The notes beneath the pieces were generated by a model. That model had not been told where the DNA came from, made no database searches, and was given only the letters and a program-made list of their open reading frames with translations. The position numbers and the translations under genes are program-made. Below are positions 3,353 through 53,727 of a DNA stretch of 64,000 bases, in pieces (the stretch's first letter is position 1; each line of letters opens with the position of its first letter). The stretch covers positions 1,612,001-1,676,000 of the forward strand of contig CP158635.1 in NCBI GenBank assembly GCA_050273025.1, in the 5' to 3' direction. The stretch is from Cenococcum geophilum. Its lineage: Eukaryota.

Positions 3353-5585
3353 AATATATATATAACTATTTAATTTTAATATAATATAAATTACCCTTAC
3401 TATAAACCTTAAACTAATATAATAAAGTTATAACTACTAATTATAGTAAAGAATATAAAGATAATATATTAAAAACCCTTAAAATTTATATAGTATAAAC
3501 CGCACCCTTTTATTTATTAGTAAGAAAATAAAACTATAAAATTTTTACTATAACACTAAAAGATATTAAGAAGGTATTAAAATTAAAGTAATATATTAAC
3601 CCCTAACCTTTTATACCTAAAGAATATTATAATTTAATTAATATATTTAAGAAATAATTTATAAACTAACTACCCCTATATTAAAATAAGTATAATTTAA
3701 AAATAAAACTTAAACCTAGTATAATATTAAAGTTTGGCCTGTTATACGGTATATTATAAGAAGAGCTACTTATAATATAATAATACCTTAGGGAACACCT
3801 AAGGAAAGGATTTATTTGCCTTAGTTAATTACTATTTACTAAGAAACCTAAAAGAGGCTTAAGGTTTTATATTAATTATTAAACCCTAAATATAATTATA
3901 ATTTAAAACCAATATTTAATTCCTCTACTTTAAGAAACGCTTAACTACTTAGTAAAAGTATAATACTTTATAAAGCTTAACGTAGTTATTACCTTTAATT
4001 AAATCCATATTTATAAAGGAGATAAAAAGTATATAGCTTTCTATATATAATAGGGACTTTTTAAATACCTAGTAATACTATTTAGTATAAAGAATAGTCC
4101 TTATATATTTTAATAATATATTAATAATACGCTTCGCGAATTCCTTAATATATTTATTACCATATATATTAATAATATCTTAATCTATTTATCCTTACTT
4201 TCTAAGTATTAAAAGTATATCTAAATAGTCCTTAAGTGCCTATAAAACGCCGGCTTATAATATAATATTAAGAAATATAAGTTTTATATATCTAAAGTTA
4301 TATACTTAGGCCTAATTATATCCTATAATAGAATTAAAATAAACCCTAAAAAAATTATTATAATTATAAACTAGGAAAGTCCTAGTAGTATATAAAATAT
4401 TTAAGGATTTCTAAGATTTATAAATTTCTACTATTAATTTATTAATTACTTCTTAAAAATTATTTAGCTATTAGTAAACTTAATAAGAAAGAATATAAAA
4501 TTTAAATAGACTACTAAATATAAATAAGCTTTTAATAACCTAAAATATTATTTTATAACTGCTCTAATTCTTACCTACTTTAATCTAGACCTTAAATATA
4601 TTATTAAAATAGACTTATCTAATTATATATTAAAAGGGGTATTATTATAATATAATAAGAACAGTAAGCTACGCCTAGTAGCCTTTCTCTTTTAAAAACT
4701 TACCCCTACTAAATTAAACTATAAGATATATAATAAGGAACTACTTACAATTATTAAATACTTTAAATAATAGCGTTTAAAACTTAAAGGATTATTATTT
4801 CTAATACGCGTATTAACGGACTATAAAAACCTATAGTACTTTATAACTATAAAGCAATTAATATAGCGTTAAATTTATTAGGCCAAATACCTTTTATAAT
4901 TTAACTTTAAGATTATATACTAACCTAGTAAACTTAATTAAAAGCCTAACTTATTAATATAATAATTATAGAACTTATTTATAAACACTTCTAACGAATA
5001 GATTATAAATTAATTATAAACACTTCTAACGAATAGATTATAAATTAATTATAAATTTTACTGCCCCCTAAACGCTTTAAAAAACTATACCCTATATTTC
5101 TAAATATAGAGCTTAATAAAAATTAATTGGAAATTAATAAGTGGGATATAAAAATTAATAAATTAATAAAGTATAAATATAAGAATAACCCTTAGATAGT
5201 AGATATAATAAAAGTAATTTAAATAGGGAAATAGTAATATAAAAATATTATACTTACTAAACATAAAATCCGTAATAATTGGTTATACTATTAATAGAAA
5301 ATAGTAGTCCCGAATTCTAAACCCTTATAATTTAAAATACTTAAATTTATATACGATTTCCCTATAGTAGGGTATCCTAGTTATATAAAGATATATAAGA
5401 TTATTTAATAAGTATATTACTAGCTTATAATATATAACTATATATAAAAATACATTTAAGTATATAGAATATATATATATAGGAAGACCTCTTATATAAA
5501 GAAATAAGGAGTACTTTAACTATTACTAATTCTAATACAAAAATAGCGAGATATTTTAATTAACTTTATAGTTAACTTGCCTAAC
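3353..5585 (+). mobile_element. Gypsy/Ty3 chromovirus-type element A, pol segment 1 (RT, RNase H, start of integrase), RIPed
   Basis: RT YIDDILIY (RIPed tatattaataatatc, ~4165), RNase H NYEIYDKELLAII (~4717-4755) and integrase H-D..GHPG (~5350-5380). The frame resumes at 14578 after the Copia B1 insertion. Confidence 0.9.
4979..5055. repeat. Perfect 35-bp tandem duplication inside Gypsy A
   Basis: ataaacacttctaacgaatagattataaattaatt at 4981-5015 and 5016-5050. Confidence 0.95.
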
Positions 5586-5762
5586 TGTTGGTTATATAAG
5601 GGGATATCACGTAGCTACGGTTCGTAGATAGTATGATGATTGTTCTTCTTAATTCTTCTTTAGGGGGGGTAAGGAGCTTAAGGCTTATCGCCACACTAGT
5701 GCCGCGGCGATATGTGACGGTAACTTGCCGTATGTAACGGCAACTTGCCTATATTCCTAATA
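5586..5762 (-). repeat. B1 3' LTR
   Basis: Direct repeat of 14401-14577; adjacent PPT-like ctcttctttt on the + strand. Confidence 0.92.
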
Positions 5763-5940
5763 CTGGCAACTCTTCTTTTACGGTTGCCATCTATATATAT
5801 ATACCGCTCGACTAGCGTAATAAATATTAATCCTCTTTACTTACTATTGCCATTGTAATATAAGTCTTGCTGTCCCAAAATTTGCCTTTTAGTATATAGT
5901 GCTTTCTTGCTTACGAGTTATGGGTAGGTATCTTATTAGT

Positions 5941-6130
5941 AGGGCCGCTAAGGCGCTAGCGGTAAGCGAGCTAATAGCGATTTTCTATCCCGGGGATGGA
6001 AAATCCTAATTGGCTGGGTTAAGTTAGAGTCTGTAGAATGTTATGCTCCCCCTTCTAAAAAAAAGTCTTAGCGAGAGAATCTAACTAATTAGATAACTTT
6101 AACCGCCGGTTAAAGTTCCTGGATATCTTA
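5941..6130 (-). promoter_or_regulatory. 3'-UTR palindrome/CCAAT-like cassette in B1 (modules P2 and P1)
   Basis: agctaat-agc-gattttctatccc-g-gggatggaaaatc-cta-attggct (5969-6015) and aactttaaccg-c-cggttaaagtt (6095-6117). Regulatory role is inferred. Confidence 0.5.
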
Positions 6131-9100
6131 AGACCTTATATAACTAAGAAATTTCTAAGGACTCCCTTTTAACCTAACCTTTAACTTATATATATAGAGT
6201 ATTTATATTAATAAACGTCTCTAGTGCCTTATTTGGATTCGCCTTTGTTATTATATCTGCTAAATTATCTTAACTATTAATCTATTAAATTTTAAAGAGT
6301 TCTTGCCGTTTATAGGATTGCTAAAGTGCCATAATATTAATCATAAGGCGCTTTTCCTTTATAGTACTAAGCTTAACTAGATACTTATAGAGGGAGTATA
6401 AATTAGTGTATACAATTATAGGGATAATAGGAAGTTTAAGTTAATCTATAATTATCTTTAGGGTAGTTCTAATTGTAATTGCTATATTAACTCCGCTAAC
6501 TATTCTATATATCTCTAATACTAGGACACTTTAAGTAACGCGCTTACTCTTAGTTAAGCTCTAATGGATAAGATTGCTATAAATTATAAAGTTATTCTCT
6601 CTAGTAGATTTATTTGTAATAATAATCTTATATCCTAACTAGGAGCTAAAATCTTTATTATTTATAAATGATCTATTAATAAATATAAAGAGCTTAGTAG
6701 TAAGAAGATTAATAGGTATATAGAGTAGTCCCTAATTAAGATGGTTTATTTACTAAAAAAGATGTTTATTTAGGGCAAGAACGTTATCCTTAGTTAGTTT
6801 CTAGTATTAGGTGGTAACGGAGAGATTAAATAAAGCCTTAGGTTAATAGATAGAAGTAATATAAGCTCCGCAAGCGCGTTGCTCTACGTATTCTTGCTTT
6901 AGAGAATTAATGTTAATAATATTAATTTTCTTACCTTAACCTTTCTAGCGCAAAGCAATAGAATTCTTATTTAGGGAGAGGATGCATCTATTAAAGAGTA
7001 ATGGTATTATTAAATTAAGCTTTTCTTTTAGCTTTACTATAAAATTTGCCTTTACTAGCTTATCTTCTTTAAGAGCTAAAAATTGGTTGTCTCTTAAGAT
7101 AATTATATTATTAGTTTATATACTAACGATTCTAAACGGAGTTTCTGTGGTTGTAATAAGAAAGTAGGGATTAAATATAGATATAGTTATTAAAAGCTTC
7201 TCTTTATGGTGCTTACTATAGGTAGCCTACTAATAAGTTCCTGCCTTTGCGATTCCGTATAATGGCTTAAGCACAACCATGATTATATCTTTAGGATATT
7301 AGTGGCGAATTTGCTTTAGAAGGTGTGCTAATATTAAGCGCTAAAGGTGTGTCTTTAATTAGGTGTAGGCCTAGGTAATATTTCGCAAATAGACTGCTAT
7401 TCTATTCTTTATTAAGGAGGGAGCTAATATAACAATAACTTGTTAACTAGCTCGTTAAATCGTAGGAGATTATATAAAAATTATCTCCTTATTATTGTTG
7501 TTGTAACCTTAAATAATAAGCCTTAATTTCTTAAATAGGGCGTTAATAGCTTTGCCCTTAATCTCGTTAACTATTCTTAACTTAAAGATGCGAACTCTAT
7601 TAAATTTAGTAGGGTTATACTTCTTAAATTTAAAGACTCCTCTTATAATAAGACCGTTAATCTCCTACTTATTAGATGCTTAGAAAGGAGCTCCTAGGGT
7701 TATAATATAACCTTTTTTTAGAGCTGTTTTATAAGCTTAAAGTTAGCCTTCTCTTTAGCTGTTATAAAGGCCATTAATAACTTAACTTTATTCTTAATGG
7801 CGGCAATAAATTATTCTTTAAAATTAATAAGATGTTGGCGATTTTATAATCCCTTTAGGCGACCTCTACCGCGTTATAGTTATAGTATATCTACTATAAT
7901 TATATTAGGATTATAGTCGTCTTCTAAAGTATATTAATTATAGTTCTCCTCTAGGGCATCTTTTAGGGCATCCTATAAAGGCTCAGAATTGTTATCTTTA
8001 TAGTAAGGCTTAATAATAGTTAAATGGAATTAAGTAGGTCCGTAAGGCATCTAAATAGTATAAATTTAGCTATTAATTATAATAAGTTAGTATGGGCCTA
8101 ACTATCCTCCCTTTTTATGCTATATGTATACTTTAGACTAGAGTGGTAGATTAAGCGTAGTTAAGGTATTTAGGCCATTTTTTATTCCTAGTATATTATT
8201 AACCTGGCGTATAGCGTAGAGATATTATACCTCCTTTATTACCTTATAAATAGCCTTAGCTTATTATATAATAGAGGGAGATAGTAAAGAATTATTAGTT
8301 ATTTAAGGGTAGGCGCTAAAGACTAGTAATATAGGTATAAGTCTATCTAGGCTAGCGGAATTGTTAATAGCTTTAATAGCTATTTATAAGGTAAGTTCTT
8401 TACTAGCGTTTTTTAATTCTAAAGAGATAATCTTATATACGCGGTATAATGGCGCGTAATATTATTCTACTTTTTTAATACTATTATATGCCTTAACGGG
8501 GACTTCCTTAACCTTAATTGCTATTGCCTTTATCTATTATCGGAACTCTATAGATAAGAAGTTCTTTTTTATATTATAGACGATTTAATTAGGGGGTCCT
8601 AAATAGATATTAATCTAGCATAACTAAAGGGTATCCTATATATTTCTAGCTAATATATCTTTTAAAAAACGCGCGGCTTAAAAAAAAGTTAAGAAGTTAA
8701 TAACTTAGAGTACTAGCTTGCCGCTAAGATATATAACGTTAATAATAATATAAAAGTTAAAATCGTAGTTATCTTTAAGGGTAAACTTAAATCGGCTAGG
8801 GGACTTCTGGTTTATTTAGTAGTAATAGTAGTACTTTATAAGATGCTTAATTGCCTTAACCTTAACCTTATAGCCTACTTACTAAAGAACCCTAAGTAAT
8901 TAATAAACAGATAGGTGGCCAAAACAATGGTATAGTTGGCGTAATTCTAACTTAGTTAAGTGGCTCTAAGTAATACTCTTTTCTAGTTAATAAAGGAGCA
9001 ACTAGGGGTAACCCTACTTGCGTATAACAGGCACCTAATTATCTCCCTAAATAAGTATATTTTTAAGGTTATTAAGCTTAATACCTAATTTGTCTATATC

Positions 9101-10706
9101 TTTAATATAAAATAAAAATAGGGTGTTTATAGGAATAACGTAAAAAGTAATATATCCTAAGGGGGTTTGGACCCTAATTGTGCTGAAAGAGATCGCGGTA
9201 CTCTTGCCAAAACGTATTATATATTAGCCTGCCGTTAATTAGTTAATCTAGATAAAAGTATTAAGTTATTAAAGAGCTTAAACTTAAGATTCTCCTACTA
9301 TAAATACTCCTATAGCTCCGGTATCTAGTATAATACCATAAAAGATATTCGCCGAGTATCTGTTATTAAAGGAGAACGCGGAGCTCTCCTTTGGCTTATT
9401 AAAGATATTTAACTTTATAATAGAATAGAGTGTAGATTAGTTATTAAGAACAGCGACAGTTTATATACCATCTACCTTACTATACTTAGTAAAGTATTAG
9501 TTAGGTAAGTAGTCCTTAATTTCTATATTTATAAGGAGCTATTCAGTCTTATTAACCTTACCCTTAAGATCTTCTACGCCTTTGTATTAAACTAGGAAGC
9601 TTTAAAAATAGGCTATAGTAACCTTATAATTTCTAATGTTTCTTATACTTTAACGAAACTTATTATATACCTCCTTTCGCTTATTAAAGGAGTATCTAGT
9701 TAACTAGTAATTTGGCTTCTTATAAATATAGCACTTCTTCTAGTAATTACTTTAAAATAAACCTCCATAAGGACCTCTATAATTACCTTATAGTTAACGT
9801 TAATTATACCCTCTTCCGTATTCCCTACCACGGCTACTATATATTTAATTAGTCTAGTTATAATTATATTAGTTAGGAGTACTTAGTTAGGTAGGGTTTT
9901 TGGTATAGAGCTATTAAGATTCTTATATTTGCATTATAGTACCTATAGCGGAGCGTAGCTTAGTATATACTCCTTTAAATATATCCGCAGGTTTATATAG
10001 CGCCAAGTTACACTTAGGAATACTACGGCATACTAAGATAACCTAGTCCCTTAAGCTGTTTTTATTTTGGTAAGTTTTAGTAAGGCCACGTTAGATTTTC
10101 TAGAGTTTATTAAAGAGTAGTTAAAGGCACTCTAAATAAGTCTTTGTTAGGTTAGAAGCGATAACTCTTTAGAACATAATCTTCCGCTATTTAGATATAT
10201 AAAGCTAGCGATTTTCATTGGTCTTAAAGTGGGCTCTAGTAAGCTAAAGTATTATATTAAAGCTATAGTTTCTACCTATAATATAGTCGTAATAAAATAT
10301 TGCCGCCCGTCCCTTTAGTATGACTAAGAAAGCATAATAGAACTAGTGGCGTTAAATTCCAACCTTACTATAGCAGTTATAAAAGACCTGTAGTTTTATT
10401 CCGAGTATATTATATAGTTCTCCTCTAAACTTCTTCTCCTCGTCTAGATATACCTTTATTAGATTCGTGACTTCTTATAGTAAAGGCTTACCGGTTAGCT
10501 AGGGTAGAGGAGCTAGAGGCAGCGGAGGTAGAAAAGGAGTACCTCTAGGTAGGAGAGCACCTCTAGGTAGGAGAGTACCTCTAGGTAGAAGAGTAGCGTT
10601 CTAGGGGTTTTATTCCGAATTAAAGTTGCCTTCTAAAGAATATAGGTTGGTTTTAGGTTTCCATAGTTAATATATAATTTTAGCTTCCGTCCATACTAGT
10701 TCTTCT

Positions 10707-13465
10707 TATTGGGAATAATATTATATATAGTTACGTGGTCGTTATATAACGCCGCGGCACTAGCGTAGCAAGGAGCCTTAAGCTCCTCGCCCTCCCTTAC
10801 CCTTTCCTAGAATCAAAATTAACAGAACAACCATTATACTATCTACGAACCGTAGCTACGTGATATCCCCTTGTGTAACCAATACTAATTAGTGGTTAAC
10901 TTTACTGTTATACTATAGAGTAGCTAGGTATTCCACCAAGAAGAGACAAGCCACTATACTAGTGCTACTCGTGCTAAAGGGAGCTATCTTTTAAGGTTAG
11001 AACTGGTCTTAAACCTTAAATAGAACTCTTCTATAAATCTAAGGATCTAAAGGCCAGAACTAGTCCTAAGCCTTTTTAAGATTACGGATTCTTGCGTCTA
11101 TTACGCAGAACAACACGCTTTATAAGTCTTCGCGATTTAAGGCCAGAACTAGTCCTAAGCCCTATAATTACAAATACACGTCTAAACGCGTACTAAACGA
11201 CAAACGCGTACTAAACAACAAATATATATTATAAACGCGTACCAAACAACAATCCCTATACTAACAACACTTCCCTTCCTCTAAAAACATGGCTACTTTA
11301 AATAACTGGAAAGACTCCTTACTACTAGGGGTAGCTACGTACGCAAAACTCATCGACGAAAATTGGGACGAATTTACTATTAATATAACAACTTATACCG
11401 CAAAACAAGTTAACAGCTTTCTTCTATACCGTATTCTATTTTACCGAAGTAGATACTATACCGATTCACAGCTATAGGAATATTTTAGGGAGGATTTTAT
11501 AGAATGGACTGCCGATACCTAGGCACTTGGTAATATTTATATTATTTAAGATTTTCGAGACTTTCTTTGGGAGAAAGGAGTATTTGTCCCTATAGATAGG
11601 GGTAATATTAGAGATAATATTTAGAAGCAAGTTCTTAACGTAAAAGAAGAACACAAATGGACTTCACAAGAGATTGAGCACTAAAAGAAGTTTAACTCTT
11701 GAGGGAATTCTAATAACGGATAGCTATAAGCAACACTATAGACAACCTTAGGCTATTAAACACCTCAAATTCCTCAAGCTGCCGTATCTCAACCTGTGCT
11801 ACAAGCTCCGTCCGTACAAGCTCCGTCTATACAAGCTCCGTCCGCACAAGCTCCGTCTGGACAAGCTCCGTCCGTACAAGCTCCGTTCAACTCAAGCGCC
11901 AAGACATCTCCTCTAACCCCTACCGCGCCTAGATAACCGGCACAACAAGCCAGATCTATAAACGATATCCCAACCCACCAGCAGCAAGCTTAATAAGAAC
12001 CTCCGCAGCAACCTCCGCAGCAACCTCCGCAGCAATCTCCGTAACAATCTCCGCAAGAACCACCGCAAGAACCTCCGCAGCAATCGCAGCAGCTACACAT
12101 ATATACACCACCTAAACCGGCCGTGTATAGTGTGGAGCAAGGACCTAGGCAAAGACCTAGATACAGTAAGGAGGTGGCTATAATTATAGAAATCTACACA
12201 GACAATAAGTTGTTTATGGCTTGCCAGGGAATTCCTTTGCAGTCTTTAACTGTTGCATGGGAGAAGGAACACCCTAGTCAAAGAGTATATACTACCTTCT
12301 ATACGGATCGCCACTACCACAATTAAGATCAAGGCCGAAACTACAACCGAAACTTTAGCCGCAATCAAGCACCCTGCGGACGATATAATAAAGGGGTAGG
12401 TTGAATAAACGAACTTGTTATGGAACCACCTAACGCTCGCACCGTACTGCTACCTAAATCTAACAACTATCGCGCCGATATGCCTGTGAACCAACCCTAT
12501 AACAAGACTCCGTGCCGATCTGCCTACGGAACCAACCCTATACTGGCACCGCACTGCTACATGCTATCGACAAACCGATAGCGCCGCTATGCCTACTATT
12601 ACGATACTGATCGCACCGATACGCCTGCAATTTACCGACAAGATTCCGTGCCGATTTGCCTACGGAATACGACCCCATTGCTGGCATTGTACTGCCACCC
12701 GAACGACCTTATCGCTGGTACCGTACTACTACCTGGACAGACCGCTGCCATGCTTGCAGCTAATTCTGATTTAACCGTTGCTGCTCTACCCGCAGCTTAC
12801 CGATATTTTGCTGCTCCCGCCTACAGCTAATCTTCGACCTTTACTGCTTTGCCTGCAGCTAAACCAACACCTTACTACCTTGCTGCCTTTCTACAGCGCT
12901 ATAAGCATAAAGAAAAATTGCCAGAGGCTTCTTATAGAGCTTAGTAAGGTAGATGACGGTACTAGGGCATGCTACCTGCGACGACCTGCGATGACCTGCG
13001 ATGATCTGCGACGTCCTACAGACCCTAATTCCAACCAGCTAATTAGGATTTTCTATCCCCGGGATGGAAAATCGCTATTGGCTCGCTTACAACTAGCGCC
13101 TTAGCGGCCCTAATACGGTATCCACCTATAACTCCTAAGCAAGAAAGCACTACATATTAAGAGGCAAATTTTGGGACAGCGAGACTTATATTACAATGGC
13201 AATAGTAAGTAAAGAGGATTAATATTTGGTACGCTAGTTAAGCAGTATTTTATATATAGATGGCAACTATAAAAGAAGAGTTGCTAGTATTGGGAATAAT
13301 ATTATATGTGGTCACGTGGTCGTTACATAACGCCGCGGCACTAGCGTAGCGAGGAGCCTTAAGCTCCTCGCCCTCCCTCACCCTTTCCTAGAATTAAAAT
13401 TAACAGAATAACCATCATACTATCTACGAACCGTAGCTACGTAATATCACCTTGTATAACCAACA
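10707..13465 (+). mobile_element. N1: 2.76-kb non-autonomous LTR element related to family B (no pol)
   Basis: 178-bp LTRs (10707-10884, 13288-13465), exact TSD cttct (10702-10706, 13466-13470), ctaattagt after the 5' LTR, B-type 5' UTR and 3' end, no PR/IN/RT/RH motifs. Confidence 0.92.
11289..12830 (+). pseudogene. Remodelled gag-like frame of N1 (B-type N-terminus, QAPS and PPQQ repeats, C-like gag blocks)
   Basis: Track ORFs 11289, 12123 and 12648 share one frame. Hand translation shows no frameshift from 11289 to 12830, only scattered stop codons. Confidence 0.7.
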
Positions 13466-13589
13466 CTTCTATACTAGTAATAACGGCCTAAATATTGCTA
13501 GCAATTAGGTTACCGTTTTTAGTAATATATACCCCATTCCTATAGAGGAAGTCTTAAAATTTTTAAACAATATCAATATTGCTAAGTGC

Positions 13590-13782
13590 TGTCACGGAAC
13601 CCGACCGTAGGGGCCTCTATAGGAGAACCCCGTGCTCTCGCGTACACCTCGCGTACAGCTTATGTCAGCTACGCGAGGGTATATCACCTCCTTACGCCCT
13701 CGACCCTTACGATCGATCGCGCAACGTCTTGTAGACTCCCCGAATACATACGCTTTGTAGCCATTGCCCGCGTTCCGTGACA
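13590..13782 (+). mobile_element. Solo LTR of Gypsy family D inserted in B1 gag
   Basis: 193 bp, tgtcacgg...ccgtgaca, matches 31603-31795 and 43337-43529. Flanked by gtgc/gtgc; the uninterrupted B site reads gctaagtgcctagg (~30057). Confidence 0.93.
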
Positions 13783-14400
13783 GTGCCTAGGTGTTGGCGG
13801 TCTATCTTGCGAAATCCTCCCTAAAATATTCCTATAGCTGTAAATTGGTATAGTGTTTACTTTGGTAGAATATAATATAGTATAGGAGAAAGCCATTAAC
13901 TTATTTTACTGTATAAGTTATTATATTAATAGTAAATTCGTCCTAATCTTTATTAATAAGTTTCGCGTATAAAGCTACCCCTAGTGGTAAGGAGTCTTCC
14001 TAGTTGTTTAAGGTAGGCGTAGCTATGTTTTTAGAGGGAGGGAAGTGTTATTGGTATAGGGATTATCGTTTAGTACGCGTTCGTTATTTAGTACGTGTTT
14101 ATGACGTATATTTGTAATTATAGGGCTTAAGACTAGTTTTAGCCTTAAATCGCGAAGACTTATAATATATATTGTTCTACGTAATAGACGTAAGAATCCG
14201 TAATCTTAGAAAGGCTTAGGACCAGTTCTGGCCTTTAAATCCTTAGATTTGTGGAAGAGTTCTATTTAAGGTTTAGGACCAGTTCTGACCTTAAAAGACA
14301 GCTCCCTTTAGCACGAGTAGCACTAGTATAGTGGCTCGTCTCTTCTTAGTGGAATACTTAGCTGCTCTATAGTATAATAGTAAAGTTAACTACTAATTAG

Positions 14401-14577
14401 TATTGGTTATATAAGGGGATATTACGTAGCTACGGTCTATAGATAGTATAATGATTGTTCTTTTTAATTCTTCTTTAGGGGGGGCGAGGAGCTTAAGGCT
14501 TATTGCCATACTAGTGCCGCGGCAATACGTGACGGTAACTTGCCGTATATAACAGCAACTTGCCTATATTCCCAACA
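14401..14577 (-). repeat. B1 5' LTR
   Basis: Direct repeat of 5586-5762, abutted by actaattag (14392-14400). Confidence 0.92.
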
Positions 14578-16340
14578 CTAATAATAATAGGTTTATAAAT
14601 ATTATAGTTTATTAACTATCTTATAAAAATATAATATATAATTCCTATAGACTTAATTAATATAATATTAGTAGCTAAATATTTTATTAAGTATATTTTT
14701 AAGCTATACGGACTTTCTAATTTAATAATATCTAACTATAGAAGCTAGTTCGTTTTAGACTTCTAATAAGCCCTATATAAATAATTAAGTATATAAATAT
14801 AACTTTTAACTATATTTTATCTAGAAATAAATAGTTAAACTAAAATTACAAATATAATTATAGAACAATACCTATAAATATACTACTCCTACCTATAATA
14901 TAACTAGGAAAAGTAGCTACCTTTAGCTAAGTTTACTATAAATAATATAAGAAATAAATTAATAGGCGTAATACTATTCTACGCAACCTATAAATAAAAC
15001 CCTTAACTTAAATTTAAATTATAACCTATAATTAATATAATAGAACCTATAATTAAGAGGATTTAACTAATTAATATATATAACTTTGCTAATTAAATTA
15101 AGTAGTTAACGGAACTATTATAAGGTAAATTAGCGTATACTTAAATAGTATAGGAATAGTATAAAAATAAAGGATGAGCTTCCGTATAGGACTTTAAGAA
15201 AGGTAATATAGTTTACCTAAATATATAAAACCTAAAAACTTAATAACCCTTAAAAAAACTTAATTAGAAGTTTATAGGCCTATACTAAATTAAAAAGAGA
15301 CTAAACCTATACGCTTATAAGCTTAAACTACTAACTAAGATAAAAATATATTTAACGTTTTATATAAGCTTACTATAACCTTTAAAAGGTAAACCTATAA
15401 CTTATAAAGTACTACTACTACCTTTTATAATTATTAATAACGGTAATAGTTCTTACTTTATTAACTTAATTAATAATATATAATAGAAAATATAATCTAA
15501 ATAATTTAAACTCCTTATTAAGTAGGAAGAATATAAAATATAAACTTTAGAAACCTATAACTAGATTAAGACTAACACGCCTTCCCTAGTAAAAGAATTC
15601 TATAAAAACTATCCTTTACGGCCACTTTAGCTAAATAGATATAATATAAAGGTAAATAACTGCTACTTAATATAAATATATAAAACATAATAGCAAAAAG
15701 CTTAAAATTAAAAAGAAATTAAAATATATTATAATGTTTATAATATAATTATATAATACATAAGATATTAAGGAACTTTAACTACTAGTTAAAGTTATCT
15801 AATTAGTTAGAACTGCCTTACTAAGACTTACTATAAAGATATTAGTTTTACTTACTGCCTTAACTAAGCTAATAATAATTTTCTATTTTAGGAATAGAAA
15901 ATCCTAATTAGCCTATTTAATAATAGAATTAGTAAAACTTTATACCGCTACCTAACGCGAAAATATAACACGCGATAAGTTATAAGTTTTAACTAAAATT
16001 AAATTATTTAGACCTTTGGCTAAAAGGGGGGGTACTATAATAGGACTAGCCCAGTTATAGTAGGAGTATTTTAGTAAAATACTTAATAGATAAATTCTAA
16101 CGCTTTAACCGAATTCTGCTAGATTAATTAAATTTTACTAAAGTTTATTAAAGACCGCGTGCGTATATACGCACGCATTAACCACTAAGCCTCTAACTAT
16201 TTAATTATATAATTCTCTTGTTATTCCTTTCTCTTTTTTACATAACGTCTTGTTCTTAGCGAGAGCTATATACCCTTAGATTTAGATAGAATTTATATTA
16301 TTCCTTTAAATCTTCCCTAAAGTCTCTTTACGCCCTTATA
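14578..16340 (+). mobile_element. Gypsy A segment 2 (integrase core, GPY/F, chromodomain-like, 3' UTR, 3' LTR)
   Basis: De-RIPed reading gives V.VD.LTK, LHGL.DSI.SD.GSQF.S.FW, G-P-Y and F.LLIKWE.Y motifs. PPT aaaaggggggg at 16022-16032. Confidence 0.88.
16036..16340 (+). repeat. Probable 3' LTR of Gypsy A
   Basis: Begins tataa (RIPed tgtaa) after the PPT and ends cttata (RIPed ttaca) exactly where another pol frame begins. Partner LTR is outside the window. Confidence 0.7.
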
Positions 16341-17646: not shown

Positions 17647-18812
17647 TATTAGTTACATAAGGTAATATTACATAGCTACGGTTCGTAGATAGTATAATAA
17701 TTATTATTATTATTCTATATATCTTTATAAGGGAAAGCAAGGAGCTTAAGGCTCCTCGCCACGCCAGTGCCGCGGCAATACGTAACGGCAACTTGCTGCA
17801 CGTAACGGCAACTAGCTAGTATTCCCAACACTAGCAACTCTTTTTTTATAGTTGCTATCTACATATATATACCCCTTAACTAGCGTAATAAATATTAATC
17901 CTTTTTACTTACTATTACTATTATAATATAAGTCTCGCTATCCTAAAATTTGCCTTTTAGCATATAGTACTTTCTTACTTAGGAGTTATAGGTAGATATT
18001 TTATTTAGAGGGCCGCTAAGGCGCTAGTAATAAGCGAGCTAATAGCAATTTTCTATCCCGGGGATAGAAAATCCTAATTAGCTAGGTTAAGTTAGGGTCT
18101 ATAGAATATTATACTCCCCTCTTTAAAAAAGTTTTGGCAAAAGAATCTAACTAATTAAATAACTTTAACTGCTAGTTAAAGTTCCTAGACATCTTAAGAC
18201 CTTACGTAACTAAGAAATTTCTAGGGACTCCCTTTTAACCTAACCTTTAACTTATATATATAGAGTATTTATATTAATAAATATCTCTAGTGCCTTATTT
18301 AGGTTCGCCTTTATTATTACATCTACTGGGTTATCTTAGCTATTAATTTATTAAATCTTAAAGAGTTCTTAACGCTTATAGGATTGCTAAAATACCATAA
18401 TATTAATTATAAGGCGCTTCTCCTTTATAGTACTAAGCTTAACTAAATACTTATAGAGGGAATATAAGTTAGTGTATATAATTATAGGAATAATAAAAAG
18501 TTCGAGTTAATCTATAATTATCTTTAGGGTAGTTCTAATTATAATTACTATATTAACTCCGCTAACTATTCTATATATCTCTAATACTAGAACGCTTTAA
18601 GTAATACGCTTACTCTTAGTTAAGCTCTAATAGATAAAATTACTATAAATTATAAAGTTATTCTCTTTAGTAAATTTGTTTATAATAATAATCTTATATC
18701 CTAGCTAGGAGCTAAAATCTTTATTATTTATAAACGATCTATTAATAAATATAAAGAGCTTAGCGGTAGGAAGATTAATAGGCATATAGAGTAGTCCCTA
18801 ATTAAGATAGTT

Positions 18813-27867: not shown

Positions 27868-28016
27868 TAAGATGTCCAGGAACTTCGACTAGCGGTCGAA
27901 GTTATTTAATTAGTCACATTCTGCAGACCCTAACTTAAACCAGCTAATTAGGATTTTCTATCCCTAGGATAAAAAATCGCTATTAGCTCGCTTACCGCTA
28001 GCGCCTTAGCGGCCCT
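27868..28016 (+). promoter_or_regulatory. 3'-UTR palindrome/CCAAT-like cassette in B3 (P1 and P2)
   Basis: aacttcgact-agc-ggtcgaagtt followed by the gattttctatccc-t-aggataaaaaatc dyad; shared with other families. Confidence 0.5.
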
Positions 28017-34600: not shown

Positions 34601-37600
34601 ATAGAGGACTTAACGCTATTATAATTAAAAACTAATACCTAGTACCGCTTATATATAAGACCCTAAAGCGGCTTAGTTAAGCTAAAATCTATACTAAGCT
34701 CGATATTATTGCCGCCTTTAACTATCCCTAAATATAGGAAGGTAATGAATAGAAAACCGCATTTGTATTGCGCTTTAGCTAATTTAAATATACTATTATG
34801 CCCTTTAGCGTATATAACGGCCTAAGCACCTTTTAAAGCTATATTAATAACGCCTTATAGGACTACTTTAATGACTTTTGCTCTGCGTACCTAGATAATA
34901 TACTTATTTATAATAATAACCCCTTTAAGTATACTAAATACGTTTAAAAGGTCCTATAGCGCCTTAGGGACGTAGGACTTTATATTAATTTAAAGAAATG
35001 TAAATTCTTAGTTATAGAAGTAAAATACCTTAAACTAATTATTACTACTAAGGGTGTCCGTATGGACCCTAAGAAGGTATATATAATTACCAAATAGTAA
35101 GCCCCTAACTATATTAAGGATATATAAGCCTTCCTTAGTTTTGCTAACTTCTATTAAAAATTTACATATAACTTCTTAGGCGTAATAGCACTACTTATAG
35201 TAATAATATAAACGAAGGGCCTTTTTATAAAAGGAAGAAAAACGCACCTACGCTTTACCTAGACGCCTAAATACGAGAAGGCGTTCTAAGACCTTAAAAA
35301 TGCCTTTACTAAAGCACCTGTCCTAGCTTACTTTATACTAGGATAATAACTCTACTTTAAAACCGACTCCTTAAACTACGTTAATGTAAGCGTTCTCTTC
35401 TAAATAGGTAATAACGGTCTTCTTTACCTAGTCGCATTTTACTTGTCTAAGCTTATACTATAAGAATATAACTATAAGATCTATAATAAAGAACTCCTTA
35501 TAATTATATAAGCGTTTAAAAAATTCTAATTAGAATTCTTTTTAGTAGAGCCTAACTAGCTAACTAAAATCCTTACGGACTATTGCAACCTTAAGTACTT
35601 TATAACTATAAAGTAGCTAAACTAATACTAAGTACGTTAAAACGAGTTCCTCTCTAGTTTTAACTTTAAAATTATATATAGACTAGGAGTATAAGGTACT
35701 AAACCTAATAGCCTAATACGCCGCTTGCAAGACCTTCCTTAGTTTAAAAATAACCCTTATAATTAGTTCTAATAATAGACAATCCTAAACGTATAAAATT
35801 TAGCTTTAGGTATACTACCTATAATAAAGCTAACTATACCCTAGCTTTATACTATAGAACTAGAGTTACCTCTTAAAATTAATAAGCTTATTACTACGGT
35901 ATATAACGCCTCTATTAACCTATTACTATATTAACTTATTACCATAAAGACTACTAGCGCCCGTACGCTACCTATTAACCTCTAAAGCTTAGGCTATATT
36001 AATATAGCAGCTTTAGAAGTAAAAGAGAACAGGCTTTATTATAGAGGCCGCCTATTTATCCCTAACTTAAAAAATCTATAACGGCAACTAATCTAAATGG
36101 CCTACGACCTCCGATTAAGCGGCTACCTAGGTAAAAAAGAAACCTATAAGCTTCTTAGCTAATACTACTTCTGGCTAAAAATAATAGACTTAGTTAAACG
36201 CTTTATAGGCGTCTACTACGGTTATAAGCGCGCTAAGGCCTTTAATATAAAGTACTAAGAACTACTACATCCTCTACTAGTACCTATACGACGATAGGCA
36301 GATATTGCTATAGATTTCGTAGTTAACCTACTACCCTATAAACGACATAGCCGTACCTATAAGAACATTCTTATAATAATATGCCGACTTATAAAAGAGC
36401 GCCACTACTTCCTAACCAAAGGTGTAGCTATTAGCGACGTTACTAACACCTTTTTTCGCAAAGTTTACCGACTATATAAGTTACCTAACTTAATTATATC
36501 TAACTAAGGTATATAATTTAACTCTAATATATAGAGACGAATCTACTAACGCCTTAGTATCTTTAATAAGATATCTATATCCTTTTACTATAAAACTACT
36601 AGGTAACCGGAAAACGCTAATACTAGTATAAAAGCGTACCTATAATAGGTAGTTGCCTATAGTTAAGATAACTGGGTAGATTACCTCCTACTAGGTAAAT
36701 TTATAGCAAATAACTACGTCTTAACTACTATAGGACTTACCCCGTTTTTTATAAATAAGGGTTATTACCCCTAATCTGGCATAAAGCCACTAGAACCTAT
36801 TAATAAGAAACTGCTATATAAAAAACGCCTTAAGATGCTACTTACTAACTAGTATACAGACTGTATAAAAAATCTACTCAACTATTGCAAGGGAGAAATG
36901 GCCTAGGCTTAAGTAAAGCAGGCCTACTTCGCTAACTATTATAGAACGCTACCACTGGAGATGCGTATTAGCGACTAGGGATAGCTAGATATATATAATA
37001 TCTCTATATAAAGGCCTATAAAGTTACTCGATTATAAGAACCTTAGCCCCTATTTAATTAAACGAGTTATTAATAAGGGAGCTATATATAAGCTAAAACT
37101 TTTACCTACCCTAGCTACCTATAGGATATAGCCTGAATTTTACCTATAGCTACTATACCTCTATTAGCCTAACCCCTTACTAGGGTAGATATAGCCTAAA
37201 CCCCTACTAGTACTAATCCGAGATAAGAATAAAAACGAGAACTATAAGGAGTAGACCGTTAAACAAATTATTAACTCTAAATACTTTAGTAAAGGTAGAG
37301 GATGACGGCTCTACTATAGAGCTATATATATAGGATTCGACATAAATTAGCCAGAATGGTAACTATAGGAAGACTTCAAAAATATAAAGGATCTAATTAG
37401 CGACTTTTACTACGCGAACCTATAGAAACTAGGCTTAAGTAGAGACTTTATACCTAATCCTTTATAGGAGCTCTTATAGAGTTAAACCGTTATATATTGC
37501 TATATAAGGGCAAATTACCGTTAAATTGCCGTTAGATTATAGTAAAGTGTAATTATATAACCGGAATATTATTATTCATTGCTTAACGTCTGATTTAGAT

Positions 37601-40600: not shown

Positions 40601-43529
40601 AATATCTAAATCTAGCTGTATTTAGATGGGGATATAGTTTAAGGTAAGTGCCTATTCTTTTTTAGGGTTGCACCTTTTAAGTCTCTAGTATAGGCCTTTG
40701 TCCATAAATATAAAGTCAATTATACTTCTAAAGGTTCCTTATTGCTATATAGTTACTCCTAGGGGGGTGGCTAACTTAAGGCCCTAGGTGTCTATAGCTC
40801 TTAGTAGGCACTCTACCTATTAATTAGCAGCAATATAGATACCCCCCTACTATAGGTAGTAGAGGTTTATATCTCCTAGTAGAATAGACTCTATGCCTTC
40901 GGTTTCTAGCAAACTTATTACTAATATAATATTCTCTGTTTATGGGACCCCTTTAACCTTAGGGTTATATATATTAATAATTTATACCAGTCCCCTATAT
41001 ATCTAGATTATTATAACTATAATATCTAGGTTAACTGCCTGCTATAACCATAAGGATAGGCTAATAGCCTTGCTAATTATAAAGCATATATATATGGCTG
41101 CTTTTAGTTTATATAGGAGCTGGAATCTTTAGGGGCAGTATGTTAATTATATATAGGTATTATAGTACGGCTCTTATATAGTAAGGATATAGTGTTTCTC
41201 TAGGTCTAGACCGTCTAGTAAAGGCCTTACAAGACGGTGGTTTATATTACCGCAGTTATATTATATAATAGATAGGTGGCGGACCCCCGGTAAGGGTCCT
41301 TCGCCTCTTCTTTATTCCTTTCTTTTTCTATTTCTACTTTCTCTAGGATATTTAGAACTTCTGTCTCTTATATCTATACCCTAGTTACTACTTATTTTAT
41401 ATAGAGCTTTCTATTCCCATATCTTATGTTCCTACTAGCGCTTCTATATCTAAATCTGTTATTATTTCCAGTTCCTCCCCTATTCTTACTAGCTAGCTAT
41501 ATACCCTTTATAGGTCGGCTATAAATGTTATATTTACCGCGTTAAATCTAATTCTTAATTATCCTAGTCTTAAGCTTGCTATAGCTGTCTATAGGGGTCT
41601 TCCTATAGGGCGTCCCCTCCCTTATGTCCCCTATAACCCTTATATCCCTATACAGTCTAGTAATATCGCGCGGCGCCGCTTCTAGCCCGTTAAGGCTTAG
41701 GATGGCTAGCCTAGCCCCCTAGTACTAAAGGTAGGAAACGCTAAAAAGGCACCTATGTCCCCCTAGCTTATTACCTATTATTTCCATTTATATAACCTGG
41801 CGTGTAGTTGTTCCCGTAGCTATTAAGCCCTTACCTTCTACCTCTTGTATTTAATATAGTCTTCTCTCTCTTACGCCTTATATATACTTTGGTAGCAGTT
41901 TACGCATTTTATTTAGTCTTAATTTAAGCAGTGTCTTATATTATAGGGGCCTGCATAGTAGCCGCAGCACACCTATACTGCGTATATGGATTAAGTATGT
42001 CCCTATTATACGCAGCAGTAGCATTATTTTAGGCGTAGTCTGTAGTTATAGAGCCTTGCGTTGTATATAAGGCCATTTATAATTATTCCTTTTTAGATAA
42101 GGAGTTTTTACATTCCTAGTGTATATATACTAACGATAAGGGAGCCATGCGTTTAACTAGCGTCTCCCTAGCAAGTCTCTGGCGACCCTTATATCCTCTT
42201 ATTATTCTTATTATTTACTTAGTTTGCATTTTCCTATTAAAGCTATTAGATTTGGGTAATCTTAAGGCCTAGTATAAGGCGTTCTGTATGCTTTACTATC
42301 TCCTATATAGTTGCTGTATTGTCCGCCTAGCGTCCCTTTTCTACCCTAAGGCTTATAGAAACCGCTAGGACTTTAACTAGGTAGTCTTTACAGAGCACTT
42401 TTATGCCAATATATTCTCCTAGCCTATTCCCTGCCCTTACGGCTTATTTCTTTACCTATTAGTCCTTTAGGGTAACTTTAATGTCTCCACTCCTAAGGTA
42501 TCGGACTATAACTACGTTGTAGACCTCTTTATAAATCTTTATAAGGACTTCTATTTCTAATTATCCCCTAAGCCCCTCTACTTTTTCTATATTTAGTTAT
42601 ATTATAATTATATACCCGGTTATTGTCTTAAAGGGGGTAGGTTCCCTATAGTATAGAAGCGCAGCTATAGCGGCCTAGGTGTAGTTCACCGGTAAGGGGA
42701 AGTTTTATTTATTTTTAATTTTGCTTAGCCGTTAGAGAATTTAATTAAGGGTTTACTAGAGGGGCGCCTAAGGTTCGCTAGACTAGCGGAGCCATTCTAC
42801 TAGCTATATTAGTTCGTTATAGCTAATAGTTACTTCCCTATAATTCTAGATACTAGACGCGTCTAGTAGGCTTTATATTTTATTAGATGCCTTCTTAATA
42901 GAGGTATTTCCGCTTTATGGTATGGTATTCGCCCGTCTTTATTATAGAGGGCCGTTGTTAGGCATAAATCTAGCGGTTACGCGCGAGTGCGAGCCACCGT
43001 TAGTTAATATGTGCCTCCCCTACGATGCATATATCTTAGGGGGATTCTCTAGGTGTTTTTCAGGGTTCTTTTTGGTTGGTTTTGGTCTTTTTAGGCCGGG
43101 TGCAGTAAGAGCTCCTCTATAACTGGAATATTATTAAGATATCTAGGAACTTTAACTAGCGGTTAAAGTTATCTAATTAGTTGGATTCTTAGATGCCAAG
43201 CCCTATTACATAATATTATTTTAAGCCTTTAGTAATACCCCCCTTTTTCTTCTTTTCTATACCTTAAGTGTCTCCTTTATATATATATAATAACCATAGC
43301 GTTACCGGAGCTCCGCCTCTATAAGAGGGGGGGTAATATTATAAAACCCTACCGCAGGGGCCTCTATAGGAGAGCCCTGTGCTCTTATATACACCTCGCG
43401 TATAGCTTATATTAGCTACGCGTAGGTATATCACCTCCTTACGCCCTTAACCCTTACGATCAATCGCGCAACGTCTTGTAGACTCCTTAAATACGTACGC
43501 TTTGTAGCCACTGCCCCTGTCCCGTGATA
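31603..43529 (+). mobile_element. Gypsy chromovirus D, full length, with a LINE in its 3' UTR
   Basis: 193-bp LTRs (31603-31795, 43337-43529), exact TSD gtata (31598-31602, 43530-43534), gag zinc knuckle (~33322-33375), RT AYLDDILIY (~34885-34911), RH, IN, chromodomain (~37250-37420), PPT at 43323-43333. Confidence 0.94.
37570..43117 (-). mobile_element. Tad1-like LINE, copy 2, ~5.55 kb, apparently full length (ORF1 and ORF2), RIPed
   Basis: TSD tataaccggaatat(tatta)/tataactggaatat(tatta) at 37556 and 43118. ORF1 has three CCHC-type knuckles (~41875-42025). ORF2 starts near IIQYNCGN (~41270). Same (aat)n tail as copy 1. Confidence 0.93.
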
Positions 43530-44049
43530 GTATAATAAACGAAAACGCTAATATATATATCTTATAAAATAGAACGGTTTTATTAAGCCCTTATAGGAAC
43601 CTATTAACTTTATAGGACTTATATAAGCTATAAAAGACTTTTATAAACTCTATTTAAAACTACTATAGCCTTATCTTACAGAAGCTTAAGTTTAAAGGAG
43701 GATACTATTCTAGGACACCCCTATAATACCTTATATACATTTACCTATTTTTATTAACTTAGTAACTAAAGACTAACTATAAAACAGCAATCTAATAGCA
43801 ATCTGCTATATTCTGCTATATTCTACTAAGTTTTACTAAATCCTATTAAGTTCTGCTAGAACTACTACCTAAGTCCTATTCTACTCCATATACATATTAT
43901 CTAAGTAACTAAGTCTATAATATATACTCTTTCTTCCTCTTTCCTACCTTCTTTTATTATATAACGTTTTAATCTTATTATATAGTTTATATACATAGCT
44001 TAATAATATCTACTTTGCTATATATTATCGTTGCTTATACTCTATAACA
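43530..44049 (+). mobile_element. Gypsy E segment 3 (chromodomain end, PPT, probable 3' LTR 43706-44049)
   Basis: YLVKWNG...WEP motif continues from 31602. PPT aaaggagga at ~43694. Ends tataaca where F-family sequence begins. Confidence 0.75.
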
Positions 44050-46629: not shown

Positions 46630-46840
46630 TGTCGGAATGTTAGTTATATGACGTGGTTACAAGACCACGAAGTAAGACTAGCTAATCTGACCTTGGAGCA
46701 AACCCCTATTTCTAGACATCAATTAACTACCAACTTCAACACCGCATACGTACCACTATAAGTGATATTCGTGCACGTTAATAAAGCGAGTATACCGACA
46801 CTAATCAGTAGACGTATAGATCAGGAAATACGCAATAGCA

Positions 46841-47130
46841 AAGCTTGAAACCACGCATTAGCTTAACTACTAACGCGTTAAATCGCAGAGCTATCGCCCT
46901 ATTTTAGTTAAAGGAGAAAACTACGTTACCCTCAAAGCTCGAGACTACGTATTAGCTTACTAATGCGTTAAATCGCCTAGAGAATTGTACCTTTACTTAG
47001 AGAGAGCTACGTTACCCTTAAAGCTTAAAACCACGCATTAGCTTAACTGTTAACGCGTTAGATCGCCTAGAGGACCCTTAAAGCTTAAAACCACGTATTA
47101 ACTTAACTGTTAACGCGTCAGATCGCCTAA
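46841..47130 (+). repeat. Four ~46-bp imperfect direct repeats in the 5' UTR of C
   Basis: aagcttgaaaccacgcattagcttaactactaacgcgttaaatcgc-like units at ~46841, 46935, 47021 and 47081. Confidence 0.85.
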
Positions 47131-50100: not shown

Positions 50101-50601
50101 ATTAGCAAGGAGATAGCCCTATAAATGGCTTTCAAAGCTATTAATAACACGGCTGGCCTAGAAGGCCTAGTCCCTATACTCCTAGTCTTCGGAGCCTACC
50201 CCTAAATGGTCGAATCGGACGCACCATTACCTTTAGTCGCACAGCGAGCTGCGGCTATTAAGAAAGCAATGGTAGAAATCTAGAAGCTTTAAGCTAAACA
50301 ACAGATCGCTGACGCTCTTAATACGCGAAATGGACAATGAACTAACGCTATTCACGGCCTCCTACCTAGTTCGCCTGTCTTAGTCTAGAGAGAAGGCAAT
50401 ACTAGCTAAAGCGGTTATTGGGACGAGCCATATATGCTACTTGCCGTTAACGGTAAGACCTATACCGTAAAGCTACCAAATGGGCCTACGACCTTCCGCT
50501 TTACGGTTGTAAAACCTTACCTACTAGACCTATAAGACTTAGTTGAACTACGAGAGTCTATTAAATTAGCTAAACCAGTACCTACACCAGCTAAACCTCA
50601 A

Positions 50602-50997
50602 TTGTTACCTAAAGCTAAACCACAGCTACCGCCAAAGCGAGGCAGAGGTCGCCCCCGCAAATACCTATTACTTACGGCTGTCGTAGACACGGCTGTTACG
50701 GACGCTACGATAGACATAGATGCCCTTACGGGTAATATTGTAGACATAGCCGACATCGCTATCTACTTGCAGGATAACGATACCGCAGATATAGCTAACA
50801 CTACTATTTACTTACAGAACAATGGCAACACCCAATTCAGCGCTTTACGGCAAAAGGAGGTCATAGGCCTACTTAAGAAAGGCGTCTTTAAGATTATTAA
50901 GCTATACAATATGCTAAAGGGGGTTAGACTCTTTAATTTACGGTTTATCAACGAGATTAAGAATAAGGGAACTAATAAAGCCTTTAAGAAATTATAA
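50602..50997 (+). pseudogene. Stop-free remnant of Copia C pol (IN-RT linker with AT-hook, RT start)
   Basis: ORF track 131 aa with KRGRGRPRK, then RQKEVIGLLKKGVF...FINEIKNKGT; lies within the pol frame. Confidence 0.85.
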
Positions 50998-52957
50998 CTT
51001 GTCGTATAGGCCTATAACGATTTGGAGAAAGAGCTAATCCTTACTTAGTCACCAACAATTTAACAAGTTAGCCAGCGGCTGATTCTCTATATCGCTACTA
51101 CGCTACCATAGATATAACTCTACCTCCGAGACATCTTATAAGCCTATATCTAGTCTACTATAAACCTAAACCGCGAGTTCTATATATAACCACTATACGA
51201 GCTAAATAAACAATTGGGAATTAATAAGGACTCCGTTCTAAAGGTTATAAAGCCACTTTATAAAGTACCTAAAGCTAGAAACCACTAGTTTAAGACCTAC
51301 TATTTACATTATATTAATTAGCTGCGAATGGACCAGTCTATATACAACCCTTGCTTACTTTACAGCAATAAACCTTTTAGCATCGTCGGCTTATAGATTA
51401 ATAATACACTATTCCTTATAAATAATACCTTTATAGAGGCTAAATAAAGCGAACTATATAAGGCTAAATTTATAACTAAGGAGCGAGAGTAACTAACTAC
51501 TAATATACTAGTTAAGTTTAATGGAGGACTTATTTAATTAGTATAAGATAAAAGTATTACGCTAACATAAAAGCGCTAGTGTAAGAACCTTAGTATGGTT
51601 AACACTACGCTAGTAGATAGTACTAGCTCCAGAGGAATTACGCGCGGCCTACTTACGCTAAAGGACTAGTATATCGCTTAACGCGCTAGAGGAGCCTATA
51701 TTGCCTTAGTCTGTTAACTAGAGGCTTTATTTAACTTATCCTTTACTACCCAGGTAACTAATCCTAAAGAGGTAGACGCGAAGGAGTTAAATAAGCGCCT
51801 AAGTTAGCAGATTTAGAACTTATATAGAGGTCTTAAGTTTATTAAATTAGAGGCTAAGACCCTATAGCTCTTAGTCTTTACGGACGCTTCTTTTACTAAT
51901 AATAAGGACCTCTCTTCGCAAATTAGCTATATTATTATACTAGCTGACGTAACTAAGAAGGCTAACGTTATCTATTAGAGCTTAATTAAATGTAAAAGAG
52001 TTACTAGAAGCGTTCTGGCTTCTAAACTCTACGGAATAGCTTATAGCTTTAATATCGCCGTTGCTATTAAGTCTACGGTAGATAAGGTCCTACAGATTAA
52101 CCTCCTGCTTATGCTTTGCACTAATTCTAAGTCGCTATATAACTGTCTTATACAACTTAGAACCACATAAGAGAAGCGATTAATAATTAATGTAATATGC
52201 CTGCGATAAGCCTATGAACGTCAGCAGATTATAGAGGTTAAATGGATTAATAGTGAAGCTAACCCTATGGACGCGATGACTAAGGGGAAGCCTTACGTCG
52301 CCCTATAGTAACTTATTGACACGAACTAGGTCGATATATAGGCTATAGGTTAGGTGGAGCGTAAGGAGCAATAGAAGGTGGTTTTCGGGTTGTGACGGTA
52401 CTAGGGTATACCACCCGCCATATTCTGCGGACCCTAAATTTAACTAGCTAATTAGGATTTTCTATCCCTAGGATAGAAAATCGCTATTGGCTCGCTTACC
52501 ACTAGCGCCTTAGCGGCCCTCACGATATATTAACCTGCTACCCCTAACAATCCTTCTCCTTTTTTTTTTTAGCTTAGTGTCCCCGTAATACAGCATTCTA
52601 TAAGCTTCTGTTTAGAGGTATTAGTATAAGCCGTAATACTAGTTGTATAATTACGGACCTATAAGAGGAGCGTAGAAACTATTGCGTATTAATTAGATCT
52701 TTAGCTATTATATATATACTATAAATAGTTTAGAAACAGACTTGGCTTTAGAGTATAGATTAGCCTTCTTCTTAGAGTTGCTCTAGTGTCGGAATGTTAG
52801 TTATATAACGTGGTTACAAGACCACAAAGCGAGACTAGCTAATCTAACCTTAGAGCAAACCCCTATTTCTAGACATTAATTAACTACCAACTTTAACACC
52901 GCATACGTACTACTATAAGTGATATTCGTGCACGTTAATAAAGCGAGTATACCGACA

Positions 52958-53483: not shown

Positions 53484-53727
53484 AAATTCTTTCTGCTCTA
53501 TTTAAAAGGGCAGCTAGCTTAAGGACCAGATTATTTATTTATATCTTTTATTTACATCTACTATTTTTTCCTTAAAAATCTCGCGATATTCTAAATAGAA
53601 ACTCTATAAATACCTTATAGAAAGCTGTTACGCTAACGTAAAAAGGTCCCTTTAATAGTAAGAGATTACAATAATATAAACCTCTAGGTAAAGCGGCTAA
53701 ATTAGCTCTAATACCTAGATACGCTAG

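Follow-up and report, generated by a model that had tools for sequence, protein, structure and literature searches.

A palindromic CCAAT module carried by Copia and Gypsy retrotransposons of a fungal genome: a probable DNA control site captured from a Gypsy LTR

What might a 49-bp palindrome do in the 3' untranslated regions (UTRs) of retrotransposons from two superfamilies? On the sequences compared here, the palindrome, P2, is probably (at about 0.55) a DNA control site for the CCAAT-binding complex together with a putative dimeric partner. Two head-to-head CCAAT boxes would dock the host CCAAT-binding complex (HapB/C/E, NF-Y), leaving the GC-rich central 7 bp open to a symmetric, dimeric partner. 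The distribution of P2 suggests that many unrelated elements may use it to recruit one host DNA-binding factor. The evidence is drawn from one lineage and is of the sequence level.

The window, the whole 64-kb stretch of DNA that was analysed, is an AT-rich, RIP-damaged nest of fungal retrotransposons. In it the Gypsy element A is split by insertion of the Copia element B1, which in turn is split by the pol-less element N1; B2, B3 and C are additional Copia copies. The principal elements are as follows.

10707..13465, plus strand: N1, pol-less, with B-type LTRs and TSD CTTCT, inserted in B1
5586-14577, minus strand: B1, a GalEa Copia element broken by N1 and by a solo LTR
46630-52957, plus strand: C, a GalEa Copia element with TSD ATTAA and CHS at 46801-46809

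B and C are classed as GalEa Copia elements by the CHS that directly follows their 5' LTRs in place of a primer site (CTAATTAGT in B, CTAATCAGT in C). Integrase precedes RT in the Copia translation, an order judged by eye, and no Pfam family was assigned to the four RIP-damaged Copia RT-RNaseH translations. The original prediction counted B1, B2, B3 and N1 as separate carriers. They are not four independent families: blastn finds their LTRs and the entire 3' end in common (the left flank of N1 is unlike that of B), so that the window holds three lineages, not six. The same prediction gave C unrelated LTRs, different flanks and a diverged pol. The pol proteins of B and C have indeed diverged, to 36-39% amino-acid identity, but the two are related, both being of the GalEa type with CHS. 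The integrase of Gypsy A, encoded upstream of its P2 core, matches SH3_Tf2-1 in Pfam (E 5.6e-9), and the polypurine tract and LTR of A lie near 16023-16035.

P2 reads RRCCAATCAS, a 13-bp arm, a C, a 13-bp arm and GCCATTGGCT. The window contains six copies.

13037..13085, plus strand: P2 in N1, the left CCAAT arm in its RIP form CTAAT, the 27-bp dyad at 13047-13073 and the inverted CCAAT arm at 13077-13083
5967..6015, minus strand: P2 in the 3' UTR of B1
18035..18083, minus strand: P2 in the 3' UTR of B2
27942..27990, plus strand: P2 in the 3' UTR of B3
52446..52494, plus strand: P2 in the 3' UTR of C
15865..15913, minus strand: P2 core, inverted, in the 3' UTR of Gypsy A

A near-identical block had been predicted in B1, N1, B2, B3 and C, and blastn with positions 13017-13111 as query places it in each of them (52430-52520, 91% identity; 27924-28016, 89%; 6035-5941, 88%; 18103-18009, 88%). 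The match to Gypsy A is limited to the core and is inverted, as expected (15912-15867, 78% over 46 nt). ATTGGCT likewise stands at 13077-13083 and at 6009-6015, where it had been reported. Over 95 nt, B, N and C differ from one another by 0-3 transversions but from A by 20-21; A thus has only the P2 core in common with them. Within the 49-nt module, all 15 pairs of the six copies differ by transitions only. The 27-nt core pattern matches the window five times, a count that omits the heavily mutated A copy (more than three mismatches), versus no match in 100 shuffles. A RIP-tolerant dyad scan of the window ranks the six copies as its top six (scores 35-38; the next dyad scores 33).

Where does the module come from? 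A wider sample was obtained from one metagenome scan with the core pattern, which yielded at least 128 loci, all copies being chosen by that pattern. Every one of the 128 matches listed has a RIP-like composition, and the whole set may derive from a single species or its close kin. By host, these matches comprise 57 in GalEa 3' UTRs, 32 in Gypsy-type 3' UTRs, seven in non-autonomous 3' UTRs, 24 in Gypsy LTRs and eight others; the classes rest on flank grouping and hand labels, with short loci placed via their flanks, and their borders are approximate. The 24 LTR copies, about a fifth of those listed, lie within LTRs that have a start plus R or U5. Among the matches listed, the LTR start word is found 45-114 nt 5' of P2 in 28 of 134 copies. 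Some LTR copies come after a polypurine tract, others before primer-site-like sequence. Two of them (L027 and L026) are the paired 241-bp LTRs of one 5.7-kb element, with TG...CA repeats and the duplication GTTAA, and a third (L078) is a solo LTR with P2, flanked by the duplication CCAGC. Eight of nine 5' LTRs have a stretch complementary to the primer site, at about 10 of 12 nt, starting 75-84 nt beyond the core. In self-priming of the Tf1/sushi type, as set out in the available text of PMC5445492, sequence after the 5' LTR is complementary to a site inside the LTR. Relative to an RNA start deduced from this self-priming complement, the CCAAT boxes lie near -114 and -76, before a pyrimidine run. 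This anatomy shows the donor to be a short, apparently self-priming Gypsy LTR element with P2 in U3, at the presumed promoter position. The profile matches of its integrase are both under the cut-off (SH3_Tf2-1, E 0.0015; Integrase_H2C2, E 0.098), and no chromodomain was matched. In a viral collection neither a relative of this integrase nor a match to the full P2 core was found; half-site matches at four viral loci represent two distinct sequences with no Pfam family in two frames each, lack the full dyad, are about as numerous as estimated for chance and were rejected.

The P2 copies in UTRs carry traces of this donor. Its R or U5 sequence is retained in 22 of 96 UTR copies among the matches listed, and C retains both LTR ends. 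In the window the traces are as follows.

52391..52638, plus strand: captured Gypsy LTR, entire at 248 bp from start word through U5 end, in the 3' UTR of C; the flanking 5-mers agree at 3/5 positions
12954..12967, plus strand: 5' start word of the donor LTR, surviving as a remnant ahead of the N1 module
13086..13111, plus strand: tail of the N1 block, native to the donor Gypsy LTR and present in dyad-free LTR copies too

Since these UTR copies bear donor LTR traces, transfer in B, C, N and the D-like Gypsy elements ran from LTR to UTR. Since many 3' UTR copies, that of C included, have donor LTR ends, the 95-bp block is largely captured LTR and not a MITE. We conclude that LTRs with P2, or pieces of them, entered the 3' UTRs of GalEa Copia, of other Gypsy and of non-autonomous elements in both orientations, and that the chimeras were later amplified. 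In these captures the flanking LTR sequence has eroded and the P2 module is intact. An LTR origin of the block accounts for its source and for the route of exchange, but not for its repeated retention in 3' UTRs.

Two sets of sequences tell against a simple LTR-origin story. Six of the 44 matches to donor R/U5 lack the dyad; a single foldback contig supplies two of them as its mirror halves, and one dyad-free donor LTR is a solo LTR with the duplication GAGAC. The A-type form of 120 bp, for its part, is without the donor tail. It occurs as a cassette in place of the U3 repeats in one of the eight copies that were aligned from a second Gypsy LTR family (L010:1106-1437); the window copy of that family, at about 43730-44050, has its U3 repeats. 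Another A-type cassette (L066:3946-4077) has no LTR sequence around it and precedes a damaged MULE transposase (5201-6700; PF10551, E 1.9e-9) by about 1.2 kb; an inverted repeat of 118 bp is present at 6560-6677 of the same locus. Some dyad-free donor LTRs (L068:7045-7330, L040:2027-2200) have the right-arm CCAAT box, single or in tandem, and the dyad may stem from an inverted duplication of that box. A 25-bp core in L040 with one base lost from each arm was set aside, its contig being a foldback.

How widely has the module spread? At least four families of Copia and three of Gypsy have the block, and the original prediction of a module common to both superfamilies holds for carriers whose proteins are 29-63% identical. 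Among the matches listed, Copia RNase H sequences fall into six groups, 33-63% identical between groups, of which five have module-bearing members, one of these being a doubtful single copy; integrases of the three recipient Gypsy groups and the donor are 29-40% identical. P2 occurs in either orientation in Copia and in Gypsy, even inside one family, and the listed Gypsy copies divide into 19 sense and 13 inverted (three L048-type copies are in sense, and no pol was seen for those three). The 200-bp inverted repeats around the L048 module, considered as MITE ends, are two opposed LTRs. The module is also kept in pol-less elements, as had been proposed: in N1 and in non-autonomous 3' UTRs. The GalEa element in L037 (Copia end at 5626) has an RNase H about 43% identical to that of B and a B-like LTR start, which suggests LTR sharing among GalEa families.

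Is P2 better conserved than the LTR sequence captured along with it? It is, in line with the original prediction. Nine copies outside full-length donor elements, compared with donor L026, show no transversion in 441 core positions (0/198 where the search pattern imposes nothing), versus 41 in 1063 positions of the rest of the LTR, plus 27 gaps (Fisher p 0.0015, for comparisons that are non-independent and share the single reference L026). Recent gene conversion could be a source of the high core identity. The module is, at the same time, dispensable: it is common but facultative, being absent from the 6/44 donor matches, from two GalEa 3' UTRs examined and from Gypsy D. Copia ends outside the selection have it in 4/4 cases in the window and in 2/5 among the loci. 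This dispensability, like the choice of copies via the core pattern, counts against the control-site reading.

The arms had been predicted to be CCAAT boxes, and so they prove. Among the 128 matches listed, left arms read CCAAT in 63, CTAAT in 64 and otherwise in one; right arms read CCAAT in 59, CTAAT in 64 and otherwise in five. The two bases preceding the left CCAAT are purines in 128/128, and the choice of AG, AA or GA differs by family. The fungal CCAAT-binding complex has the consensus CCAATVR and covers 13 nt beyond CCAAT, according to the portion available of PMC7144946. The 122 intact-CCAAT arms among the matches listed comprise CCAATCA (28), CCAATGG (21), CCAATAG (37), CCAATAA (1) and CCAATTA (35), the last being the RIP product of CCAATCA. 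By sequence, the unmutated arms CCAATCA and CCAATGG both fit CCAATVR. The -9 position is complementary to its partner in just 61 of the 128 listed copies, and three spacer positions in 0, 1 and 16 of 128. Because the outer bases vary without compensation and the spacers are never complementary, a protein site suits the data better than a stem.

What could occupy the centre? A footprint extending 13 nt past each box leaves the central 7 bp, which are GC-rich, free. In the solved complexes, as far as the available text of bioRxiv 10.1101/2021.07.15.452465 describes them, a HapX dimer binds the 7-bp stretch right after the 13-nt footprint. The Aspergillus CBC:HapX sites (PMC7144946 and the same preprint, both in part) resemble P2 in having a CCAATVR box and then a 7-bp stretch centred 17 bp from the box. 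They differ in that P2 is without RWT/TKAN, has a GC-rich centre and sets two boxes around one centre; the solved HapX complex is 1:2:1. In the 122 arms among the matches listed, neither RWT 12 bp after CSAAT (0/122) nor a TKAN half-site 11-23 bp downstream (0/122) was found. As HapX motifs are absent and the central 7 bp are unlike in P2, in its second allele and in a further dyad, P1, no partner is named. If the CCAAT complex is recruited, P2 would point to a partner other than HapX at the HapX position. The spacing of P2 may resemble that of the mammalian ER-stress element, and the block tail may resemble PacC or VosA sites.

P1 is a second dyad, of unrelated sequence, which lies upstream in A and B and has like orientation in both.

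15774..15806, plus strand: P1 dyad with CCAAT box, Gypsy A
6085..6117, minus strand: P1 dyad with CCAAT box, B1
18151..18183, minus strand: P1 dyad with CCAAT box, B2
27881..27913, plus strand: P1 dyad with CCAAT box, B3
43148..43180, plus strand: P1 dyad, without P2, in the 3' UTR of Gypsy D

The CCAAT box of P1 lies 16 bp from the axis, as in P2, in 52 of 55 copies (loci among the matches listed, plus the window), compared with 0 of 26 other window dyads; this agreement concerns two modules, not 52 events. It is possible, though we hold the idea only tentatively, that the two superfamilies trade P1 and P2 as interchangeable anti-silencing modules of a single design, in which a CCAAT box is set 16 bp from the dyad axis, and that these modules would engage the CCAAT complex and an undescribed dimeric partner, host- or element-encoded, to the advantage of the carrier at any position or orientation. 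Were that so, cis-regulatory modules would be a selected resource common to a whole transposon community. P1 is found with or without P2, and relatives of Gypsy D carry both, in sense or inverted. The 3' region of Gypsy D itself (40923-43336) is unusually long, about 2.4 kb, and is cut off from pol by a LINE-like insert (37567-40923); a quick search of the antisense strand of that region found no six-cysteine cluster.

How might a control site benefit an element from within its 3' UTR? The module would have entered UTRs by nested insertion, solo-LTR formation and template switching. The bound complex would then bend the DNA and keep the local chromatin open, and open chromatin could aid transcription in silenced repeat nests, whether the unit transcribed is the element, its 3' LTR or an antisense unit, and in either orientation. 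Human NF-Y binds LTRs in inactive chromatin, as reported in the available part of PMC3730095, an analogy which suggests that position and orientation may not matter for P2. The CCAAT repeats of ERV-9/LTR12 described there are alike in placing CCAAT boxes in the upstream LTR part, and NF-Y binding is a feature of LTRs of that type. P2, as a putative site of this kind, differs in that its boxes are opposed on the two sides of a perfect dyad, within the LTR of a fungal Gypsy element, and that most copies are in the 3' UTRs of other superfamilies. Against the control-site reading stands the position of the UTR copy in a provirus: some 5 kb separate it from the 5' promoter, which it follows, and fungal upstream activators are generally regarded as short-range. 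In a raw RNA run deposited under another organism label, of which about 12% was read, an unmutated copy whose flanks are L066-like is spanned by some 45 reads, most of them running the same way. Neither starts nor ends of these reads pile up at the module; that copy is transcribed through and gives no sign of a promoter.

Could the module have spread without benefit to its carriers? Donor LTRs would insert into other elements, only insertions into 3' UTRs would survive, and the stable hairpin would stall reverse transcriptase so that co-packaged RNAs swap flanks, the dyad being spread and homogenised as a recombination hub. We think such neutral capture rather unlikely, although several observations accord with it. 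Flanks on the two sides of the dyad are reassorted, in 42 combinations in 134 copies among the matches listed; the module is facultative; and in a B subfamily (L039, L067, L095, L124) it is doubled in tandem, with one module per central allele (L095:189-327) and an intact donor U5 end after the pair. Of the 18 non-standard copies among the matches listed, ten have a symmetric centre allele, with both arms changed, in Copia UTRs, Gypsy UTRs and one donor LTR; no one-sided form occurs among them, which is the pattern expected of palindrome correction. This allele fits a dimer site, a hairpin and palindrome correction equally. Correction ought, however, to symmetrise the spacers and outer arms as well, and both are asymmetric, yet keep the CCAAT consensus. 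Neutral capture also leaves the common box-to-axis distance of P1 and P2 unexplained. If P2 were a mere recombination hub, it would still document non-coding exchange across superfamilies.

An RNA hairpin, acting in the transcript of whichever strand is read (in packaging, dimerisation, export or 3'-end processing), is clearly the less probable use of the palindrome. Unmutated copies do have folding energies of about -22 to -29 kcal/mol, whichever strand is folded, the symmetric allele preserves pairing, and transcription runs through an unmutated copy. On the other hand, the outer stem positions change without compensation, the symmetry reaches the single central base, which is unpairable in a hairpin, and the inferred RNA start in the 5' LTR comes only after the module. 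Rfam gave no match (best E 0.62, at 16 bits where the threshold is 76).

That a host factor bound near the cDNA end anchors the integration complex on chromatin, or brings the two ends together, we regard as very unlikely. The classified copies are indeed no more than a few hundred bases from the end of an element, whether in U3 or 3' UTR and in either orientation, but the copy upstream of the MULE transposase has no surrounding LTR sequence. A small repeat moving on its own is scarcely credible, even with the ~120-bp form in settings as varied as the vicinity of that transposase gene: the original prediction had named an ordinary MITE or a solo-LTR fragment as what might undo it, and only the LTR half of that alternative stood, for among the matches listed 5-mer duplications flank the dyad in 4/128 copies (3.2 when shuffled) and the block in 2/128 (3.1), 8-mers in none, block edges differ by family and duplications bracket whole LTRs.

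How does P2, read as a control site, compare with palindromes already described in Copia elements? The CHS and extended CHS of GalEa elements (PMC5445492, available text) are likewise palindromic non-coding sequences common to GalEa families of one species. CHS, however, follows the 5' LTR and reads CTGATCAGT, whereas P2 comes after pol or in U3, reads CCAAT and is found in Gypsy too. P2 as a form of CHS was accordingly rejected: none of the 128 left arms listed reads CTGAT, and the module is not directly after the 5' LTR. The LTR cis region of plant Sireviruses (PMC4728375; see also PMC2829016) also has palindromes in the regulatory part of the LTR; those, as the part consulted of PMC4728375 describes them, differ strongly by family and are confined to one Copia lineage, whereas P2 is near-invariant across superfamilies. 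CCAAT boxes in U3 and LTRs, nested LTR insertion and palindromes in LTRs are each known singly. Among the papers listed by searches of the open literature we found no account of P2 or of such repeated Copia-Gypsy exchange. Less expected is that one LTR promoter module has been captured repeatedly, in both orientations, by Copia and Gypsy families of 29-63% protein identity, and kept as the captured LTR erodes. New here are the anatomy of the LTR, the direction in which it was captured, a conservation control internal to the captures and the common P1/P2 geometry. If the CCAAT complex is recruited, P2 would offer a 49-bp handle on the transcribability of fungal retrotransposons under RIP and heterochromatin.

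Two further elements of the window are recorded here. The element at 54646-56287, probably a miniature LTR element of young age, measures 1.6 kb and has direct repeats of 194 bp that are 97% identical; it is present in L005 too. At 53064-53947, inverted repeats of 200 bp, 85% identical, are separated by about 480 bp.
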